Origin: Escherichia coli
Lineage (GTDB): Bacteria; Pseudomonadota; Gammaproteobacteria; Enterobacterales; Enterobacteriaceae
NCBI RefSeq assembly: GCF_024298765.1
Contig: NZ_CP101210.1
DNA: 64,000 nt
Direction: 5' to 3' (one strand)
Position 1 is the stretch's first letter, and each line of letters opens with the position of its first letter. The notes beneath the pieces are model-generated. The model saw only the letters and a list, made by a program, of their open reading frames with translations. It was not told the origin of the DNA and ran no database searches. Shown one piece after another: positions 44,933-63,693 of this stretch. Made by a program: the position numbers and the translations under genes.

Positions 44933-45008
44933 GCCCGGATAGCTCAGTCGGTAGAGCAGGGGATTGAAAATCCCCGTGTCCTTGGTTCGATTCCGAGTCC
45001 GGGCACCA
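44933..45008 (+). tRNA. pheU: tRNA-Phe (anticodon GAA)
   Basis: 76 nt GCCCGGATAGCTCAGTCGGTAGAGCAGGGGATTGAAAATCCCCGTGTCCTTGGTTCGATTCCGAGTCCGGGCACCA; pheU assigned from flanking yjdC. Confidence 0.95.
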
Positions 45009-45020
45009 AATTCATATAAA

Positions 45021-45049
45021 CGGACCTCCACGGAGGTCCGTTTTTCGTT
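45021..45049 (+). terminator. Rho-independent terminator after tRNA-Phe
   Basis: CGGACCTCC-ACGG-AGGTCCG hairpin followed by TTTTTCGTTTT. Confidence 0.75.
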
Positions 45050-45205
45050 TTAGGACGCCACGATTTAAGCGTCCTGCCGCCAAATCAATTCTACCGAACT
45101 CAACCAGACTCCCCCCACATCAACCCCATTGTGTGGGTATAATTGCGGGTATACCCCAGTTCGACAGAATTTGTACCCTCTTTAACGCATTCAGAAGGCT
45201 GAACT

Positions 45206-54291: not shown

Positions 54292-56271
54292 TCAGGTGCC
54301 GATTATGCCGCCGTCGGCTTTTACGATAACGACAGTTGAGGAGCGCGGACGACCAGCCTTATCGCCGTCAGGCCAGCTTGATACTGCCGTCGGATGCTGC
54401 GGATCGCTAAGCCCTTCGCTTGGCTCGCCAGGGTGCTGGATGTTAATAAACAGCGTCCGGTTATCCGGAGTGAACGCGATGCCGGTGATTTCGCAGCCGC
54501 GCGGGCCGGTCAGGAAGCGGCGGAACTCATTGGTACCGGGGATCGTCGCCACCATCTGGTTGTTGCCCATGCCTTTGTAATCTTTACTATTGATGGTTGA
54601 TGACGACACGTCGGTCTGGATCCATAGCACGCCGCGGTGATCGAAGCTCAGGCCATCGGCGCTGCCGAATTCCGCCCCCTTCATGCTGCCTTTGGTTTCC
54701 GGTTTGTCCGTATCGGTGCGACCGCCCATCACAAGAATATCCCAGGCAAACTGCAGCGCGGTCGGGTCACCGTTATGCTCCAACCAGTGAATGATGTGGC
54801 CGTAAACGTTTTTGGCGCGCGGGTTGGCCGCATCCACTGGCGCTTTTCCTTCCTTACCGCGATCGCTGTTGTTGGTGAGCGTGCAGTAAACGCTGCCGGC
54901 GTGATATGGATCGACCGCAATCCACTCCGGGCGGTCCATTTTAGTGGCCCCCACGGCGTCTGCCGCCAGACGGGTTTTAATCAACAGGTCGCCCTGGTTT
55001 TCAAACCCTTTACTGGCGTCGAGCCCATTTTGTCCGAACACCAGCGGTAGCCACTCGCCTTTGCCGTCGTCGTTAAATTTCGCCACGTACAGAGTGCCTT
55101 TTTCCAGCAGGTGCATGTTGGCTTTGCGATCCTGCGGGTTGAATTTTCCTTCCGAGACAAATTTATATATGTATTCGAATTTCTGGTCATCGCCCATATA
55201 GACCACAACGCGGTTATCCGGGGCAATTGTCACCGCTGCGCCTTCGTGTTTGATGCGACCAAGCGCGGTGTGCTTGCGCGGCACTGAATGCGGATCGTAT
55301 GGATCGATTTCCACCACCCAGCCGAAGCGGTTCGGCTCGTTCGGCGTGGCGTCGACGCTGAACCTTTTATCCACTTCGTTCCAGCGGTAAGAGTCGTCGC
55401 TCCCGCTGATACCGTAACGTTTTTCCAGCGGGTTCATCTCTGCTTTTTTTACGAAAATATCGGACCAGTTCTCTTCACACGTCAGATAGGTGCCCCACGG
55501 CGTAAATCCGTTGGCACAGTTCTGCATGGTGCCGAGAATGATTTCGCCTTTCGGATCGTCAACTGTTTGCATCAGTGGGTTATGCAGCGCCGGACCGGTG
55601 ATTTTCATCGGCGTGTTAACGGTGATGCGGCGTGCGAAAGATGACGGGCGCACCACTTCCCAGCCCAGGGGCACTTTTTTTACTTCAATGACCGACACGC
55701 CCATCGCGTTCTGGCCTTTAAGAGCTTTATCGGCGCTCCAGTTGGCATCGCCATCTTTAAACAGTAGACCGTTATCGATGTATTCATGGTTTATGGCAAG
55801 CAGGCCGTGATCGGAGCTGTTCCCGCCCTGCGGCAGGCTAAACCACGCCATGCCGTCGTGGTGCATCCCGGCCTGCGCCGCCTGTTCTTCCGTGGTGTTG
55901 CTACCGTCGGTTTTAAAAACCGGCAGATTTCCGGCAATCCCGGTGGCGTCGCCCCATTTGTAGAAGGGCTTCGCGATGTATCCTTCCGGCACGATAACGG
56001 TATCTTCCGTGGAAACCGGCAGGCTGGTGAAACCGAGCGTCGTCGCTTTGCCGAGGTTACCGCTTGCTTTGGAGACCACTTTCGCCAGCGCGTTTTCCTG
56101 TTTCAGCAGAAATGGGAACGCTGCCGCGGCACCGGCGACCGTGCCTGCCTGTAACAGACGGCGGCGTGACAAATAGACTTCCGCCACCTGCGAAAACGCG
56201 CGGTTATCGCTCGGGTTACTGATTTCTTCACTATGCTCACGTTTGAATAAAGTTTTTAACGGTCTGCCCAT
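54292..56271 (-). CDS. PhoX-family (DUF839) alkaline phosphatase-like protein with twin-arginine signal
   Basis: ORF track 659 aa; SRRRLLQAG Tat motif; conserved blocks LAINHEY, GRIKHEGA, MDRPEWIAV, NIQHPGE which I associate with PhoX-type phosphatases. Confidence 0.6.
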   Translation of the reverse strand: MGRPLKTLFKREHSEEISNPSDNRAFSQVAEVYLSRRRLLQAGTVAGAAAAFPFLLKQENALAKVVSKASGNLGKATTLGFTSLPVSTEDTVIVPEGYIAKPFYKWGDATGIAGNLPVFKTDGSNTTEEQAAQAGMHHDGMAWFSLPQGGNSSDHGLLAINHEYIDNGLLFKDGDANWSADKALKGQNAMGVSVIEVKKVPLGWEVVRPSSFARRITVNTPMKITGPALHNPLMQTVDDPKGEIILGTMQNCANGFTPWGTYLTCEENWSDIFVKKAEMNPLEKRYGISGSDDSYRWNEVDKRFSVDATPNEPNRFGWVVEIDPYDPHSVPRKHTALGRIKHEGAAVTIAPDNRVVVYMGDDQKFEYIYKFVSEGKFNPQDRKANMHLLEKGTLYVAKFNDDGKGEWLPLVFGQNGLDASKGFENQGDLLIKTRLAADAVGATKMDRPEWIAVDPYHAGSVYCTLTNNSDRGKEGKAPVDAANPRAKNVYGHIIHWLEHNGDPTALQFAWDILVMGGRTDTDKPETKGSMKGAEFGSADGLSFDHRGVLWIQTDVSSSTINSKDYKGMGNNQMVATIPGTNEFRRFLTGPRGCEITGIAFTPDNRTLFINIQHPGEPSEGLSDPQHPTAVSSWPDGDKAGRPRSSTVVIVKADGGIIGT

Positions 56272-56876
56272 TGCGGTTTCCTTTCAAAAAATCGATTTCA
56301 AGGGGAATCATTTTTATGCACGTGAGTCTACGGAAAGATTGTTACGGAAATATAACAATTGTCATAAAAAACCGGCGATAAAATCATCTATGGTCGGGAC
56401 GCGGTTTCAGGTATGATGTGAGGCTAGAATTCTGAACGCTCTCTTTTGTTGAGCATATATGGACGTCCCAGATGAGGCAAGTACTGGTTCGATGCGGTTT
56501 GCGACCATATATCCGGCGTCGTTAGTAGGTTCAATGACCTGCGCCATGATGTTATCCGGGCCCTATTTCCTAATCACTACACCGGTATTTGATTACCCAG
56601 GTCAACTTCAGACTGTTACAGGGGCGGTAGCCGTTATCTCATCAGTGAATGTAAACTCAGTTAAAAATATTTTCTATAACTTACTGTTTTTCTTTAATTC
56701 ATCACAACGGCCTTCTGCATATTAAAATCAATACTATCGCTCAAAACACGCCAGATGATTCTTGTCAGCTTATTCGCCAGCGCACCAGTGGTTTTCAGGA
56801 ACCCTCGACGGGCTTCCATCCTTTGCAGACAAATACTCAGACTGTCAGTGAGCTTTTTCACACAGCGCATTACAGA

Positions 56877-57288
56877 CTGAAATGGCACACTGAATTTGGT
56901 CACCTGAACAGAGGTGATATGCTCACCTCAGAACAAGACTGGTGCCCTAATGAAAAAAAGAAATTTTAGCGCAGAGTTTAAACGCTAATCCGCCCAACTG
57001 GTTGTTGACCAGAACTATACGGTGGCAGATGCCGCCAAAGCTATGGATATCGGCCTTTCCACAATGACAAGATGGGTCAAACAACTGCGTGATGAGCGTC
57101 AGGGCAAAACACTAAAAGCCTCTCCGATGACACCAGAACAAATCGAAATACGTGAGCTGAGGAAAAAGCTACAACGCATTGAAATGGAGAATGAAATATT
57201 AAAAAGGCTACTGCACTCTTGATGTCAGCCTCCCTGAACAGTTCTCTATAATAGGGAAACTCAGGACACGTTATCCTTTGGTCACTCT
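56877..57288 (+). mobile_element. IS911-like (IS3 family) remnant: left end plus orfA carrying a nonsense codon; orfB absent
   Basis: Left end TGAAATGGCACACTGAATTTGG..; orfA reads MKKRNFSAEFKR* then ..[39 protein letters not shown]; element ends abruptly near 57288. Confidence 0.7.
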
Positions 57289-58160
57289 CTGTGTAGTGGA
57301 TCGGTAATTCAGGACACCTCATTTTCACTGTTAATGTTAAAAAGTGAAAATGAGGTGATGCATGATCAAAACTCGTCGGACTAAACGTACCTTTTCCCCG
57401 GAGTTCAAGCTTGAAGCTATCGAACAGGTGGTTAAATACCAGCGTGATGTCAGAGAAGTCGCGCTGGCACTCGAGCTCAACCCTGACCATTTGCGTAAAT
57501 AGATACGGTTGTATAAGCAGGAACTTCAGGGTATTGAGCCCGCTGGTAATGCTATTACTCCTGAACAACGCTAAATTAAGCAGCTTAAAGCGCAGATAAA
57601 GCGCCCTGAGATGGAAAAAGAAATACTAAAGCAGGCTGCCGTGCTGATGAGCGAAATCCCCGGGGAAACTGTCGCGCTAATCACACAGCTGAAAGCAAAG
57701 TGGCCAGTGCGGGTTCTTTGTCATTTATTCGGTATTCACCGTAGCATTTATTACGCGCAGGTGAAGCGTCCTGTTAATGTGCAAAGAATTGAATTACGAA
57801 GTCGGGTGAGGGCTGTCCATGCTCTCAGTCGTGGCGCAGTCGGTAGCCGGGCAATCAGTCAGATGTTGCGCCATAGTGGCGTTGATGCAGGCCGGTGGCT
57901 GGCACGACGACTGATGCGGGAATGCGGGCTGACAAGTCGACAGCCAGTTAAACATCACTACCGGGTAAACGAAGACAAAAGTCCGCCATTGCCAAATTTA
58001 CTGAACCGGCAATTTCACCCCGCCGCACCAAACCGCGTCTGGTGCGGCAACATCAGTTTTATTCGCCTGCAGGACAAATGGTGTTATCTCGCACTCGTTG
58101 TTGATTTATATTCACGGCGGATTATCGGTTCAGCCCTCTCATTAACCGCTGATGCTGAGT
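57289..58160 (+). mobile_element. Degenerate IS3-family element: orfA with two in-frame stops, orfB truncated by IS66 insertion
   Basis: orfA from ATG 57362 MIKTRRTKRTFSPEFKLEAIEQV.. with TAG and TAA stops; orfB fragment (ORF 57611..58165) ..RVWCGNISFIRLQDKWCYLALVVDLYSRRIIG.. ends where IS66 end begins. Confidence 0.6.
57316..57357 (+). promoter_or_regulatory. Perfect 15-bp stem hairpin overlapping the ribosome-binding site of the IS3-family orfA
   Basis: CACCTCATTTTCACT-(12 nt)-AGTGAAAATGAGGTG; the 3' arm contains GAGGTG 5 nt upstream of ATG at 57362. Confidence 0.5.
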
Positions 58161-58198
58161 TGTAAGCGTACAGCGAGGGCCGTATTGACGGGGATGTG

Positions 58199-59736
58199 TT
58201 ATTCAGCTGGCAGTGCTATGCGCCACGGAAGCAGTTCGCTGACCCGGTTGACCGGCCAGTCTGCTATGACGCCAAGCACATGGCGAAGGTAACTTTCTGG
58301 ATCCACGTCATTCAGTTTGCACGTCCCTATCAGGCTGTACAGTAGCGCTCCCCGCTCACCACCATGGCCAGAGCCGAAGAACAGGAAGTTTTTACGACCC
58401 AGACTTACCGCCCGCAGGGCATTTTCAGCGATGTTGTTGTCGATTTCCACCCAGCCATCGTTCGCATAGTACGTCAGTGCCGGCCACTGGTTAAGTGCGT
58501 ACGCGAACGCCTTCGCCAACTCTGAGTGTCGCGACAGGGTCTTCATCTTTTCACGCAACCAGCTTTCCAGGGATTTCAACAGCGGTTTCGTTTTTCGCTG
58601 ACGTTCAGCAAGCCGCTGCTCTGCCGGCATTCCCCTTATATCCGCCTCTATGGCGTACAACTGACCGATCTGCTCCAGGGCTTCTTCCGTCAGTGCTGAC
58701 GGGATGCGGACGTGCACATCGTGGATCTTTCGGCGGGCATGAGCCCAGCAGGCAGCTTCCGTTATCCCACCATTGCGATACAGCTCGTTGAACCCGGCGT
58801 ACGCATCCGCTTGCAGCACACCGCTGAAGCAAGCAAGATGAGTCTGCGGATGGATGCCTTTTCTGTCCGGGCTGTAAGCGAACCACACTGCAGGTGCCAA
58901 CGCTGACCCGGCATTGCGGTCATCACGAACATACGCCCACAACCGCCCGGTCTTCGTCTTCTTATTACCCGGCATCAGTACCTGGACCGGGGTATCATCG
59001 GCATGGAGTTTGCCGTCAGTCATGACATAGCCATGAAGCGCCTCTTCCAGCGGAGACAGCAGCCGGCAGCATGCATCCACCCAGCCCGACAGCAGTGAAC
59101 GGCTCAGCTCCACACCTTGCCGGCCGTATATTTCTGACTGGCGATACAGCGGGGTGTGCTCTGCATACTTCGAGGTCAGCACGCGGGCCAGCAGCCCCGG
59201 TCCGGCGATACCCCGCTCGATGGGCCGCGAAGGTGCAGGTGCCTGCACGATGGCATCGCACTGAGTACAGGCATGTTTTTCCCGTACCGTCCGGATAACC
59301 CGGAAGGCGCTACGCATCAACTCCAGCTGTTCGGCGGTATCCTCGCCCAGATAGCTCAGTGAACCGCCGCAGTTCGGGCAGCACGGCGCCGCAGGCAACA
59401 GTCGCTTTTCGTCACGGGGTAGTGATTCAGGGAACGGCTTACGGATGCGGGTCTGACGCAACGGACGCTGTACTGCGGGTCATACACCCTACCAGTCAGC
59501 GTATCGCTCTCTTTCTGAAGCCGGTTCAGATCGGCTTCCATTTGTGCGATACGGCGGGAGACTTTTTCGGAACGACTGCCGAAGTTCATCCGGCGGAGTT
59601 TATCCAGCTGCGCCTGCAGATGGTCTATTTCGCGCTCCCGGTTGCTCAGCTTTTCCTGCAGGGCGTGGATCAGCGCTTCCTGTTCGGCCAGGCGCTGTTT
59701 CAGCAGGAAGATGTCGTCAGAAGAGATGTCGTTCAT
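58199..59736 (-). pseudogene. IS66-family TnpC transposase, split by a frameshift
   Basis: N-terminal 126-aa ORF (59356..59736) and 420-aa ORF (58199..59461) overlap in different frames; together about 530 aa. Confidence 0.7.
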
Positions 59737-59785
59737 AAGCCCGTATTTTACCGGGCTTATTCTGTGACAACCAGGATAAAGAGAT

Positions 59786-60133
59786 TTACAGCATGGTCAG
59801 GGAGGTCAGCAGCCGCTTAGGCTGTCGCCAGTCGATACCTTCCAGCAGCATCGCCAGCTGCGCCTGTGTAAGGAACACTTTGCCATCACGGGCTGACGGC
59901 CAGGCGAAGCGCCCACGCTCCAGCCGTTTGGTCAGGAGGCACAGTCCGTCACCGGTGGACCACAGCAGTTTAACCTGACTGCCGCTGCGGCCCCGGAAAA
60001 TGAAAACATGGCCGGACATGGGATCGTCTTTCAGCGCCGTCTGTACTTTCGCAGCCAGGCCGTTGAAGCCATTTCTCATATCGGTGATACCGGCAACCAG
60101 CCAAATTTTGGTCCCGGAAGGTAACGGGATCAT
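59786..60133 (-). CDS. IS66-family TnpB (orfB)
   Basis: ORF track 115 aa MIPLPSGTKIWLVAGITDMRNGFNGLAAKVQ.., characteristic IS66 orfB. Confidence 0.8.
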   Translation of the reverse strand: MIPLPSGTKIWLVAGITDMRNGFNGLAAKVQTALKDDPMSGHVFIFRGRSGSQVKLLWSTGDGLCLLTKRLERGRFAWPSARDGKVFLTQAQLAMLLEGIDWRQPKRLLTSLTML

Positions 60134-60531
60134 CGCTTCAGTTCCTGTATCAGCAGAGTCAGGAGCTTTTCGCTGACATTGCCATTGAAGCGGAGCGTCC
60201 CGTGCCGGAACGTTACCTCACAGCTGATACTGAGGGTTTCCGGGTCCTCTGCGAGCGATTCTGGCTGTTCGGCAGCTGCATCGAGAGTCACAGGAAGTAG
60301 CTGGGGGCTCTCTGAAGAAGGTAATATCAGCTTTCCCTCGCGCCATTGTTGTCGCCATTTGAACAACAGATTGGCGTTAATGCCATTTTCAAGAGCAAGT
60401 TTTGAGATGTATATCCCGGGTTCACAGGAGGCAGCAACGAGCTGCTGTTTAAATTCGGGAGGATAATTAGGGCAGCCTTTTCGCCTGCCGGGAGTCACAT
60501 TTTTCTGCATATCTGACACTTTGGTTCCCAC
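60130..60531 (-). CDS. IS66-family TnpA (orfA)
   Basis: ORF track 133 aa, HTH-type N-terminus; first gene of IS66 operon. Confidence 0.7.
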   Translation of the reverse strand: MGTKVSDMQKNVTPGRRKGCPNYPPEFKQQLVAASCEPGIYISKLALENGINANLLFKWRQQWREGKLILPSSESPQLLPVTLDAAAEQPESLAEDPETLSISCEVTFRHGTLRFNGNVSEKLLTLLIQELKR

Positions 60532-60587
60532 TACTTATTTGAAGTGCGCCCCAATAGTTAGACACCAGATCTGTAACTGAGGAGCGT

Positions 60588-60943
60588 ATGAGCAAATTTT
60601 CATTAGAATTCAAAAGGGAAGTATCAGAAAAATACCTGGAAGGTGAGCTGAGTTTGAAGTCTGTTGGAAAAATGTACAATATTGACCCCAGCACGGTAAG
60701 GAAATGGGCTTATGTTTACCGTAAGCACGGATTAAAAACACTGACTGGGCAAAAAAGACGTTATGACGATAACTTCAGATTGAATGTGGTCAGAGATGTT
60801 ATTGATAATTCTCTTTCTATAAGGGAAGCTGCAGTGAAGTATGGGATCCCTGCTTTTAACACCATATCCAAATGGATTAAAAAATACAGTGAGGTTGATT
60901 TTTCGATGAAGGGACAAAAGGAAGATTTGAGGCCGAAAACTCC
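60588..60943 (+). pseudogene. IS3-family (IS150-like) orfA-type double-HTH transposase gene, interrupted by IS1
   Basis: ORF track 125 aa MSKFSLEFKREVSEKYLEGELSLKSVGKMYNIDPSTVRKW..; last codons derive from the IS1 left end at 60944. Confidence 0.55.
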
Positions 60944-60998
60944 GGTGATGCTGCCAACTTACTGATTTAGTGTATGATGGTGTTTTTGAGGTGCTCCA

Positions 60999-61274
60999 GT
61001 GGCTTCTGTTTCTATCAGCTGTCCCTCCTGTTCAGCTACTGACGGGGTGGTGCGTAACGGCAAAAGCACCGCCGGACATCAGCGCTATCTCTGCTCTCAC
61101 TGCCGTAAAACATGGCAACTGCAGTTCACTTACACCGCTTCTCAACCCGGTACGCACCAGAAAATCATTGATATGGCCATGAATGGCGTTGGATGCCGGG
61201 CAACAGCCCGCATTATGGGCGTTGGCCTCAACACGATTTTACGTCACTTAAAAAACTCAGGCCGCAGTCGGTAA
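60999..61274 (+). CDS. insA: IS1 InsA
   Basis: ORF track 91 aa [40 protein letters not shown].. Confidence 0.9.
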
Positions 61275-61696
61275 CCTCGCGCATACAGCCGGGCAGTGAT
61301 GTGATTGTCTGCGCTGAAATGGACGAACAGTGGGGCTACGTCGGTGCTAAATCACGTCAGCGATGGCTGTTTTACGCGTATGACAGGATACGGAGGACGG
61401 TTGTGGCGCACGTCTTCGGTGAACGCACTCTGGCCACACTGGAGCGTCTTCTGAGCCTGCTGTCGGCCTTTGAGGTCGTGGTATAGATGACGGATGGCTG
61501 GCCGCTGTATGAATCACGCCTGAAGGGAAAGCTGCACGTTATCAGCAAGCGTTACACTCAGCGCATTGAGCGACATAATCTGAATCTGAGACAACATCTG
61601 GCAAGGCTGGGACGGAAGTTACTGTCGTTCTCAAAATCGGTGGAGTTGCATGACAAGGTCATCGGGCATTATCTGAACATAAAACACTATCAGTAA
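61193..61696 (+). pseudogene. insB: IS1 InsB interrupted by in-frame TAG
   Basis: Track splits InsB into 61193..61486 (..LSAFEVVV*) and 61487..61696 ([12 protein letters not shown]..); sequence GTGGTATAGATGACGG where canonical IS1 has a Trp codon as I recall. Confidence 0.7.
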
Positions 61697-61837
61697 GTTG
61701 GAGTCATTACCTCCTCCCGAACTCAAAGCTATCATACAGATAATTACTGGTTAACCCTATATAGGGCATTTTAAAGTGTTGTGATCTTACCCAGCAATAG
61801 TGGACACGCGGCTAAGTGAGTAAACTCTCAGTCAGAG

Positions 61838-62143
61838 GTGACTCACAAGACAAAACAGTTTCAACCAGTAAAAAAACGTAAACAGCATTCGCCTGAATTT
61901 CTCAGTGAAGCCCTGAAACTTGCTGAACGCATCGGTGTTGCTGCCGCAGCCCGTGAACTCAGCCTGTATGAATCACAGCTCTATGCGTGGCGCAGCAAAC
62001 TGCAGCAACAAATGAGTTCGTCAGAGCGTGAAAGTGAACTGGCCGCTGAAAATGCCCGCCTGAAGCGGCAACTGGCGGAGCAGGCAGAGGAACTGGCTAT
62101 CCTCCAAAAGGCCGCGACATACTTTGCGAATCGTCTGAAATGA
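61838..62143 (+). CDS. IS3 OrfA (HTH protein); canonical ATG appears replaced, GTG start only
   Basis: ORF track 101 aa ..[57 protein letters not shown]. Confidence 0.65.
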
Positions 62144-63006
62144 AGTATGTCTTTATTGAAAAACATCAGGCTGAGTTCAGCATCAAAGCAATGTGCCGCG
62201 TGCTCCGGGTGGCCCGCAGCGGCTGGTATACGTGGTGTCAGCGGCGGACAAGGATAAGCACGCGTCAGCAGTTCCGCCAACACTGCGACAGCGTTGTCCT
62301 CGCGGCTTTTACCCGGTCAAAACAGCGTTACGGTGCCCCACGCCTGACGGATGAACTGCGTGCTCAGGGTTACCCCTTTAACGTAAAAACCGTGGCGGCA
62401 AGCCTGCGCCGTCAGGGACTGAGGGCAAAGGCCTCCCGGAAGTTCAGCCCGGTCAGCTACCGCGCACACGGCCTGCCTGTGTCAGAAAATCTGTTGGAGC
62501 AGGATTTTTACGCCAGTGGCCCGAACCAGAAGTGGGCAGGAGACATCACGTACTTACGTACAGATGAAGGCTGGCTGTATCTGGCAGTGGTCATTGACCT
62601 GTGGTCACGTGCCGTTATTGGCTGGTCAATGTCGCCACGCATGACGGCGCAACTGGCCTGCGATGCCCTGCAGATGGCGCTGTGGCGGCGTAAGAGGCCC
62701 CGGAACGTTATCGTTCACACGGACCGTGGAGGCCAGTACTGTTCAGCAGATTATCAGGCGCAACTGAAGCGGCATAATCTGCGTGGAAGTATGAGCGCAA
62801 AAGGTTGCTGCTACGATAATGCCTGCGTGGAAAGCTTCTTTCATTCGCTGAAAGTGGAATGTATCCATGGAGAACACTTTATCAGCCGGGAAATAATGCG
62901 GGCAACGGTGTTTAATTATATCGAATGTGATTACAATCGGTGGCGGCGGCACAGTTGGTGTGGCGGCCTCAGTCCGGAACAATTTGAAAACCAGAACCTC
63001 GCTTAG
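62140..63006 (+). CDS. IS3 OrfB (DDE transposase catalytic part)
   Basis: ORF track 288 aa with rve-domain motifs (..[39 protein letters not shown]..). Confidence 0.85.
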
Positions 63007-63019
63007 GCCTGTGTCCATA

Positions 63020-63685
63020 TTACGTGGGTAGGATCACTAAGCCAGGAATTAAGTCATTTAAAGATATTTCAAATTCACTGGCAATCGTATCTAATCCTTC
63101 CTTATCAATAGATTCAAGCCATAAATTATAATCAATAGGAAGAAGCAACGGATGAGTAAAGTTCAATCTATTTACTAAAGATGATTTAGTATACTCATCA
63201 TTACTTAGCTCTCCAATAAATTCATTATTTATAGAAACAGCATAGTTCTTTATATATGCTGCTCTGTGCAATTGTGACCATGCGATTTTAAACTCTACAT
63301 AAACCTTTTCAGTTTCATCTGCAATGTCTTTCATTTTTATAAAATGAATATCGAAAATATCACCAAGTTCTTCTAAATATGTTTTATATTCTACACCTAT
63401 TGTTTGTTCAGGATCGAAACCGATACCAATAGTAATTACATTATTCAGATCCCCATTATGGACTAGAGATCTAAATCCATCTATGCGCCTGTTCCCCATA
63501 GCTTCTAAATATATAGGATCACACTGCTCACGGTCTAATATTTGTTGAAGATAAAATAATGCAATTAAAATAGTAGTCTTGCCCGCGCTGTTTGGCCCCA
63601 ATAGTAATGTTACAGGTGCAAAATCAATTTCCTGCCGCTCTCTAACAGATCTGAAATTTTCAAGTACAAGTTTAGTTAATTTCAT
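63020..63685 (-). CDS. ABC-type (AAA_15/AAA_21-like) ATPase, N-terminal 221 aa; reading frame terminated inside IS3 right end (likely truncated)
   Basis: MKLTKLVLENFRSVRERQEIDFAPVTLLLGPNSAGKTT Walker A; stop codon lies within the IS3 terminal sequence; AT-rich. Confidence 0.6.
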   Translation of the reverse strand: MKLTKLVLENFRSVRERQEIDFAPVTLLLGPNSAGKTTILIALFYLQQILDREQCDPIYLEAMGNRRIDGFRSLVHNGDLNNVITIGIGFDPEQTIGVEYKTYLEELGDIFDIHFIKMKDIADETEKVYVEFKIAWSQLHRAAYIKNYAVSINNEFIGELSNDEYTKSSLVNRLNFTHPLLLPIDYNLWLESIDKEGLDTIASEFEISLNDLIPGLVILPT

Positions 63686-63693
63686 AATGAACC

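Follow-up and report, generated by a model that had tools for sequence, protein, structure and literature searches.

The IS3-like element at positions 61782-63036 of the window (the whole 64,000-nt stretch of Escherichia coli DNA that was analysed) is probably, at a likelihood of roughly 0.8, a pseudogene copy of an IS3 isoform, recombinant and non-autonomous. It is considered recombinant because it matches a decayed IS3 relic at element positions 1-96 and an intact mosaic allele from position 97 onwards. The element and its immediate neighbours are the following.

60944-61711, plus strand: IS1 copy of 768 bp directly upstream of the spacer, with its terminal repeats located; called a pseudogene with an internal stop by PGAP in matching genomes
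61712-61781, no strand: 70-bp spacer from IS1 to the IS3 left end, part of a conserved junction
61782-63036, plus strand: IS3-like element of 1255 bp (canonical IS3 has 1258 bp), a 100% match to copies in many complete genomes, ABU 83972 among them
61782-61820, plus strand: left terminal inverted repeat (IRL), the same as in K-12 IS3, with no differences at element positions 1-65
62998-63036, plus strand: right terminal inverted repeat (IRR), ending in GGATCA, the same as in K-12; the last difference from K-12 lies at element position 1211
63020-63685, minus strand: AAA_15 ATPase gene of the right flank, truncated by the right end of IS3; the two overlap in the final bases of the ORF

The element starts with TGATCTTACCC at 61782, ends with GGGTAGGATCA at 63036 and is 95.6% (95.63%) identical to K-12 IS3 at the nucleotide level overall. 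Its ends (IRL, TGATCTTACCCAGC; reverse complement of IRR, TGATCCTACCCACG) are both those of K-12 IS3; we take each repeat to be about 39 bp long. They are imperfect terminal inverted repeats of the TG...CA kind that characterizes the IS3 family, and the family's two overlapping ORFs, orfA (HTH) and orfB (DDE/rve) in frames 0 and −1, are present, as is an A AAG-type −1 frameshift motif near the end of orfA. Lacking are a functional orfA start, that is, an ATG with its Shine-Dalgarno sequence, and a 3-bp target duplication, the flanking triplets being TTG (left) and CTA (right), as compared with ATC on both sides of a K-12 control copy. As a rule of thumb, ISfinder treats elements as isoforms at ≥95% nucleotide or ≥98% amino acid identity. 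With 287 of 288 residues identical in OrfB but only 77 of 101 in OrfA, the element sits at the edge of the IS3-isoform range by its nucleotide identity. PGAP names it 'IS3 family transposase', not 'IS3-like element IS3', and flags identical copies as a 'frameshifted' pseudogene; some older database records label the ORF that starts at GTG 'transposase'.

The IS3 copy lies in an IS-rich section of a tRNA-Phe genomic island (window 44933-60900), which also holds a sulfatase-family ORF and an outer-membrane beta-barrel ORF in addition to the features below. About 13 kb of it (46982-60023) is not collinear with strain ACN002, which has aac(3) and ISVsa5 there.

44933-45008: tRNA-Phe
45206-46468: integrase
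46920-50435: ORF with SF1-helicase and PLD-nuclease
54292-56271: PhoX
57611-58165: truncated IS3-family rve ORF
58199-59461: IS66 transposase

On the other side of the element, the truncated AAA_15 ATPase ORF is 221 aa long in the window; strain YZ22PE67 has a full-length 540-aa AAA-family ATPase, not aligned to the window fragment, at the corresponding position beside a type I restriction-modification operon. This flank continues to the end of the window at 64000. In matching genomes, the S, M and R genes of a type I restriction-modification system come after the truncated ATPase gene, so that an IS-mediated rearrangement apparently cut into a defence locus.

The orfA start lesion and the damaged patch

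The initial annotation had reported that orfA, compared with the IS3 reference, appeared to have lost its canonical ATG start while orfB was intact. The coding features of the element are listed below.

61838-62143, plus strand: orfA reading frame (HTH_Tnp_1, PF01527, 40.5 bits)
61847-61849, plus strand: AAG replacing the ancestral orfA ATG, from alignment to K-12 and relatives
61848-61876, plus strand: damaged patch, comprising T>A, a 1-base deletion in an A5 run, A>T (61860) and A6C4>A7C1
61902-62134, plus strand: divergent 'mosaic' orfA body
62104-62110, plus strand: programmed −1 frameshift site C CAA AAG, conserved with K-12
62140-63006, plus strand: orfB, intact, 288 aa, its ATG overlapping the orfA stop (ATGA)

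Alignment bore out the loss of the ATG. The window reads gaggtgactcacaagacaaaac at 61835-61856, and its start region, GAGGTGACTCACAAGACAAAAC (in wider context, cagtcagaggtgactcacaagacaaaacag), corresponds to GAGGTGACTCACATGACAAAAAC in K-12 IS3 (L005), in agreement with the reference sequence given in the initial annotation. In that MG1655 copy, the PGAP transposase CDS, with its programmed frameshift, begins at the ATG at element position 66 and not at the equivalent GTG. Because ATG and the same reading frame were found in all six relatives aligned (K-12 IS3, a 98% relative, a 93% plasmid relative and three ISEc16-like elements of about 88%), AAG is the derived state.

The implication that an IS3 copy had lost just its start held for the ATG itself, but the substitution belongs to a patch of six changes including two indels, and orfA as a whole is not canonical. 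The patch matches the relic of the BL21 type with 0 differences; against the YZ22PE67 allele there are 6, and against K-12 there are 7. When differences were compared with the YZ22PE67 allele (L002), the nearest ATG-bearing full-length relative used to assess clustering, 6 of 8 over 1257 alignment columns were packed in 32 bp, a clustering with a chance of about 1e-6 by simulation. The change in the A/C run is CCCC>AAC relative to this allele, a loss of one base, and a loss of two bases relative to K-12. Compared with K-12 or the intact mosaic, the indels are −1 and −2 and sum to −3; the ten codons between them are read in a shifted frame, giving a different stretch of ten residues, after which the frame is back, and this restoration yields the 101-codon ORF that opens at GTG 61838. 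The YZ22PE67 allele has kept the ATG but carries an orfA frameshift of its own (A6 run shortened to A5), and this second, independent inactivation underlines the ordinariness of such decay.

Downstream of the patch, 46 of the 46 sites that separate the mosaic orfA body from K-12 carry the mosaic base. This body is that of the YZ22PE67, L020 and L027 alleles and has about 85% nucleotide identity to K-12 IS3; K-12-like sequence resumes from about element position 354. The C CAA AAG motif is the frameshift site given for IS3 (PMC5009743). The claim that orfB is intact was confirmed: its product retains the HTH_21, rve (DDE core, 97.8 bits) and rve_2 domains and differs from K-12 OrfB by one substitution, K285Q.

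Recombination at a shared IS1-IS3 junction

With a 75-nt query able to seed only on the patch, we found the patch in 1,439 of 5,426 complete E. coli genomes, at a median of one and a maximum of three places per genome. The records fell into 117 at ≥99% identity and 1,330 at about 97%. The latter class is a decayed, internally deleted IS3 relic that BL21 and many other strains carry downstream of fecI-ykiE-IS1F and that occurs, beside IS1F and the 70-bp spacer, in about a quarter of E. coli genomes (approximately 1,400). Its annotations read 'hypothetical protein' or describe IS3 pseudogene fragments (PGAP 'IS3 family transposase'), and it stands next to fecI-ykiE-IS1 in the annotations of BL21 and ACN002. 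The initial annotation had spoken of an impairment of "this copy"; the lesion is indeed present there, but it is not private to it, being common to the relic at the same IS1-adjacent junction.

The relic has a large internal deletion and has lost the right terminal inverted repeat. Over positions 104-228 it is about 16% changed relative to K-12, with stops and a 3-base insertion, whereas positions 1-103 carry no extra changes relative to the full-length patch elements. In the BL21 (L011:2457-2790) and ACN002 (L018:34767-35103) relics there were 0 changes in the first 65 bp and 7 in the next 31 bp. That the first 65 bp should appear undamaged in a relic was unexpected.

The IS1-spacer-IS3 junction was present in 1,656 E. 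coli genomes and also in 25 plasmid records, some of them from Salmonella. The left flank CATTTTAAAGTGTTG is the same in the window and in L001, L009, L011, L016, L017, L020, L023 and L026, and the shared left junction, TTTTAAAGTGTTG followed by TGATC, carries at least five different bodies or right flanks:

Relic: L011 (BL21) and L018 (ACN002)
Patch and mosaic body with a dGTPase-family right flank: L001
Patch and mosaic body with a truncated AAA_15 ATPase / type I restriction-modification flank: the window, L009, L019, ACN002 and FDAARGOS_1287; 13 genomes
Patch and K-12-like body with an integrase-side flank: L017
Canonical 1258-bp IS3 with ATG: plasmid L016
Intact 1258-bp mosaic with ATG, A5, GTA and A6C4: L020, L023 and L026

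Some ATG-bearing alleles share the dGTPase flank with the L001-type arrangement. No 3-bp target duplication was seen in the three arrangements compared side by side, and the right flanks of L016, L017 and L020 (ATG, GCC) do not match the TTG on the left. In GPEC673 (L010:291-3000) and strain 181.1 (L013:486-2500), the left end of a patch-bearing IS3 is interrupted by an IS21-family insertion (ISEc12 or IS100); PGAP annotates the remainder in GPEC673 as an intact programmed-frameshift transposase.

Comparison of the window element with the relic gave 0 differences at positions 1-65, 0 at 66-96 and 58 at 97-270, whereas comparison with the YZ22PE67 mosaic gave 0, 6 and 0, respectively. After position 97, L020 differs from the window element by 1 nt. 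The switch falls within the following interval.

61877-61884, plus strand: recombination breakpoint interval, 8 bp CGTAAACA, from relic-like to mosaic type; the same interval in L017

Judging from these alignments, we regard two points as settled: the patch is common by descent to the relic and to the full-length elements at the junction, and the boundary at 61877-61884 divides relic-type from live-type sequence. A simple recombinant between the relic and the YZ22PE67 allele was considered and revised in view of L017, which combines the patch with a K-12-like body, and of L020, L023 and L026, which carry the intact mosaic at the same junction.

The IS1 copy of the window is a mosaic as well. 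Up to about 61345 it is another IS1 variant, with about 60 sites that differ from IS1F, and its right part is the IS1F of the fec locus; this switch marks a probable crossover inside IS1 that would have joined the IS1-spacer-IS3 module to the tRNA-Phe island. ACN002 matches the window at 99.8-99.9% over 60024-64000 and holds both arrangements, the relic at the fec locus and the IS1-spacer-patch element in the tRNA-Phe island. Taken together, the junction alleles point to a movement of flanks and segments by homologous recombination within IS3 and IS1 copies, and not to the patch-bearing element having transposed.

We propose that homologous recombination or gene conversion between junction alleles brought the lesion into a full-length element or kept it there. 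The favoured direction would be from the relic left end into an allele like L020, since the patch resembles the beginning, on the left, of the stretch of decay in the relic. If a tract came in through the long identical left flank, it should stop at the point at which the similarity between relic and live sequence collapses, and such an ending would account for the end-point shared by L017 and the window. Later crossovers inside IS3 and IS1 would then have changed the flanks, bringing the truncated AAA-ATPase to the right end and the tRNA-Phe island to IS1. An independent IS3 insertion into the AAA-ATPase gene was also considered as the source of the right flank, and no such genome was found at the expected rank among the 5,426. 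The only informative flank SNP, at position −600 (two relic genomes examined against all full-length alleles), lends no support to the import of a long tract from a relic donor.

The same SNP fits the reverse history, in which a full-length element at the IS1 junction acquired the patch by mutation and later gave rise, by decay and internal deletion, to the relic, with no transfer from relic to live element: both relics examined differ at it from every full-length allele. A single ancestor would also fit the finding that both types of full-length patch element depart from the relic sequence within one 8-bp interval. We nevertheless consider this history unlikely, and less parsimonious than transfer from relic to live element. 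Decay in situ should have affected both parts of the relic, yet the changes of positions 104-228 have no counterpart at 1-103, and six spontaneous changes in 32 bp of an otherwise pristine element would have a chance of about 1e-6.

Expected expression and mobility of the copy

Three signals surround the lost start codon.

61816-61846, plus strand: predicted 5′ hairpin (pairing GUGAGU...ACUCAC and CUCU...AGAG) that contains both GTG 61838 and the Shine-Dalgarno sequence and ends right before the start codon
61835-61840, plus strand: Shine-Dalgarno sequence GAGGTG, with a spacing of about 6 nt to 61847
61838-61840, plus strand: in-frame GTG that opens the 101-codon orfA ORF

The duplex of GAGGUG with the 3′ end of 16S rRNA was calculated at −7.1 kcal/mol and serves the AAG codon. 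The initial annotation had singled out GTG 61838 as the only in-frame start and as one without Shine-Dalgarno spacing, and both statements stood: it is the sole canonical in-frame start before codon 59, with an in-frame TGA stop upstream at 61817-61819, and its best upstream pairing, −2.2 kcal/mol and 16 nt away, provides no usable Shine-Dalgarno sequence. This GTG falls within the Shine-Dalgarno sequence itself and within the predicted hairpin, and the next in-frame ATG, codon 59, lies past most of the HTH. The hairpin, which K-12 IS3 also has, was predicted at −12.6 kcal/mol (z = −2.06 against shuffles, a modest support). Structures that sequester the ribosome-binding site have been described for other IS elements, and the IS3 leader hairpin could be of this kind. 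A scan of 61650-62200 for promoter and terminator consensus sequences found none.

According to the text of a 64-codon study in E. coli, which gives no individual value for AAG, codons other than AUG/GUG/UUG and AUA/AUC/AUU/CUG initiate at about 0.01-1% of the AUG level (bioRxiv 10.1101/063800). The literature searched contained nothing directly relevant on initiation of IS3 orfA or describing the fec-adjacent IS3 relic. Initiation of OrfA in the window copy would thus be expected to fall by orders of magnitude, to a small fraction of normal. OrfAB, made only by ribosomes that translate orfA and then slip at C CAA AAG, should be depleted with it. In the IS3 work of Sekine and Ohtsubo, OrfB translation reportedly depends on ATGA coupling, and translationally coupled OrfB would be depleted likewise. 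With OrfA, OrfAB and OrfB all depleted, the copy would be unable to move itself. It could still serve as a substrate for homologous recombination and, since it has kept intact its two terminal repeats, its frameshift site and orfB, possibly for transposase supplied in trans by another IS3. Translational impairment, which had been raised initially as a possibility, is in our judgement the best reading of the sequence, given a Shine-Dalgarno sequence aimed at AAG and the pseudogene call by PGAP, and we infer that transposition of the copy is impaired as well.

It is decidedly unlikely that the copy is functional, making an N-terminally altered but active OrfA and OrfAB from GTG 61838 (or weakly from AAG), with the indels kept for the sake of the frame. 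The 101-codon ORF is uninterrupted and encodes HTH_Tnp_1, the frameshift site and orfB are intact, and some records annotate the ORF as a transposase; a complete ORF whose indels sum to −3 could hint at retained coding function. Identical 1255-bp elements also occur with two different right flanks, for which mobilisation in trans followed by recombination could be an alternative origin. Against this, the GTG lacks a Shine-Dalgarno sequence and is buried in the one that serves AAG and in the hairpin, and the patch is also found in the relic, where the ORF is destroyed downstream, so that the frame is not selected there and would be restored by chance in 1 of 3 cases. The constant left flank, the missing target duplication, a copy number that is typically one and the PGAP pseudogene call argue in the same direction. 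Very improbable, in our estimation, is a role in trans, whereby a low level of altered, GTG-initiated OrfA would inhibit or regulate a resident IS3, or the element would be a trans-mobilisable non-autonomous derivative; if true, selection for such a role would explain the frame-restoring indels.

A recent, isolated ATG>AAG point mutation in an otherwise canonical IS3 of this strain, the reading implicit in the initial annotation, is hardly credible: T>A at 61848, taken alone, is a single substitution relative to K-12 IS3, but five more changes lie within 32 bp, the orfA body is only about 85% identical to K-12 and the same patch recurs at the same junction in 1,439 genomes, mostly in a decayed relic. 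The probability of a sequencing or assembly artefact in homopolymer runs is negligible, even though two of the changes alter the length of A and C runs, since the identical 1255-bp sequence, AAG included, is found in many independently sequenced complete genomes and the patch in 1,439.

The element represents nothing of a new kind, being a defective IS copy for which RefSeq already has a pseudogene annotation, and it has little import for biology at large, as defective IS copies are common. For annotators, it should not be counted as an active IS3, and the older records that call the GTG ORF a 'transposase' should not be trusted. The locus offers a worked example of how IS copies at one junction may swap segments by homologous recombination: a start-codon lesion is common to a dead relic and an otherwise intact element, and the flanks appear to have been re-assorted by crossovers in IS3 and IS1 without transposition. 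This is of relevance wherever IS positions are used as evidence of transposition history or strain relatedness.

Comparison with known systems

The window element has the terminal repeats, the 5′ leader (positions 1-65), the Shine-Dalgarno sequence, the C CAA AAG site and the ATGA overlap of K-12 IS3 (insE/insF; WP_085947771.1). Unlike K-12 IS3, it has AAG and two indels, a length of 1255 instead of 1258 bp and an orfA body of about 85% identity, and it is without a target duplication. From position 97 on it is the same, bar 1 nt, as the intact mosaic isoform (99-aa OrfA, KZI88430.1; L020, L023, L026 and L027), of which L020, L023 and L026 also share the IS1-spacer left junction; where that 1258-bp isoform has ATG, A5, GTA and A6C4, the window copy has the 32-bp patch instead. 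The intact isoform was found in several flanking contexts (L020, L021, L022-L024, L025 and L027) and as a stand-alone 1258-bp contig, suggesting that it is, or recently was, mobile and multi-copy.

With the BL21-type relic, the window shares the right part of IS1F, the spacer and IS3 positions 1-96 with their AAG and two indels, but beyond position 103 the relic consists of decayed K-12-like sequence, deleted inside and without the right terminal repeat. The allele of YZ22PE67 and EC17CM12 (L002:1501-2757, L003) carries the mosaic orfA body and the orfB of the window copy, from which it departs by 8 differences over 1257 bp, and lies between thymidylate synthase and a dGTPase-family gene in a tRNA-Phe island. 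Its right flank is that of most patch-bearing copies (e.g. L001), while its left flank differs from that of the window; it, too, is without a target duplication, its flanking triplets being ACT (left) and CAT (right).

In the scheme established for IS911, IS2 and IS3, OrfA is a regulator, OrfAB is produced by −1 frameshifting and transposition proceeds by copy-out-paste-in via a circle (PMC5009743). The window element has the HTH-bearing OrfA, the rve-bearing OrfB, the slippery site and the TG...CA ends that this scheme requires, whereas its orfA initiation appears to be disabled, such that only transposase supplied in trans would be able to run the mechanism.
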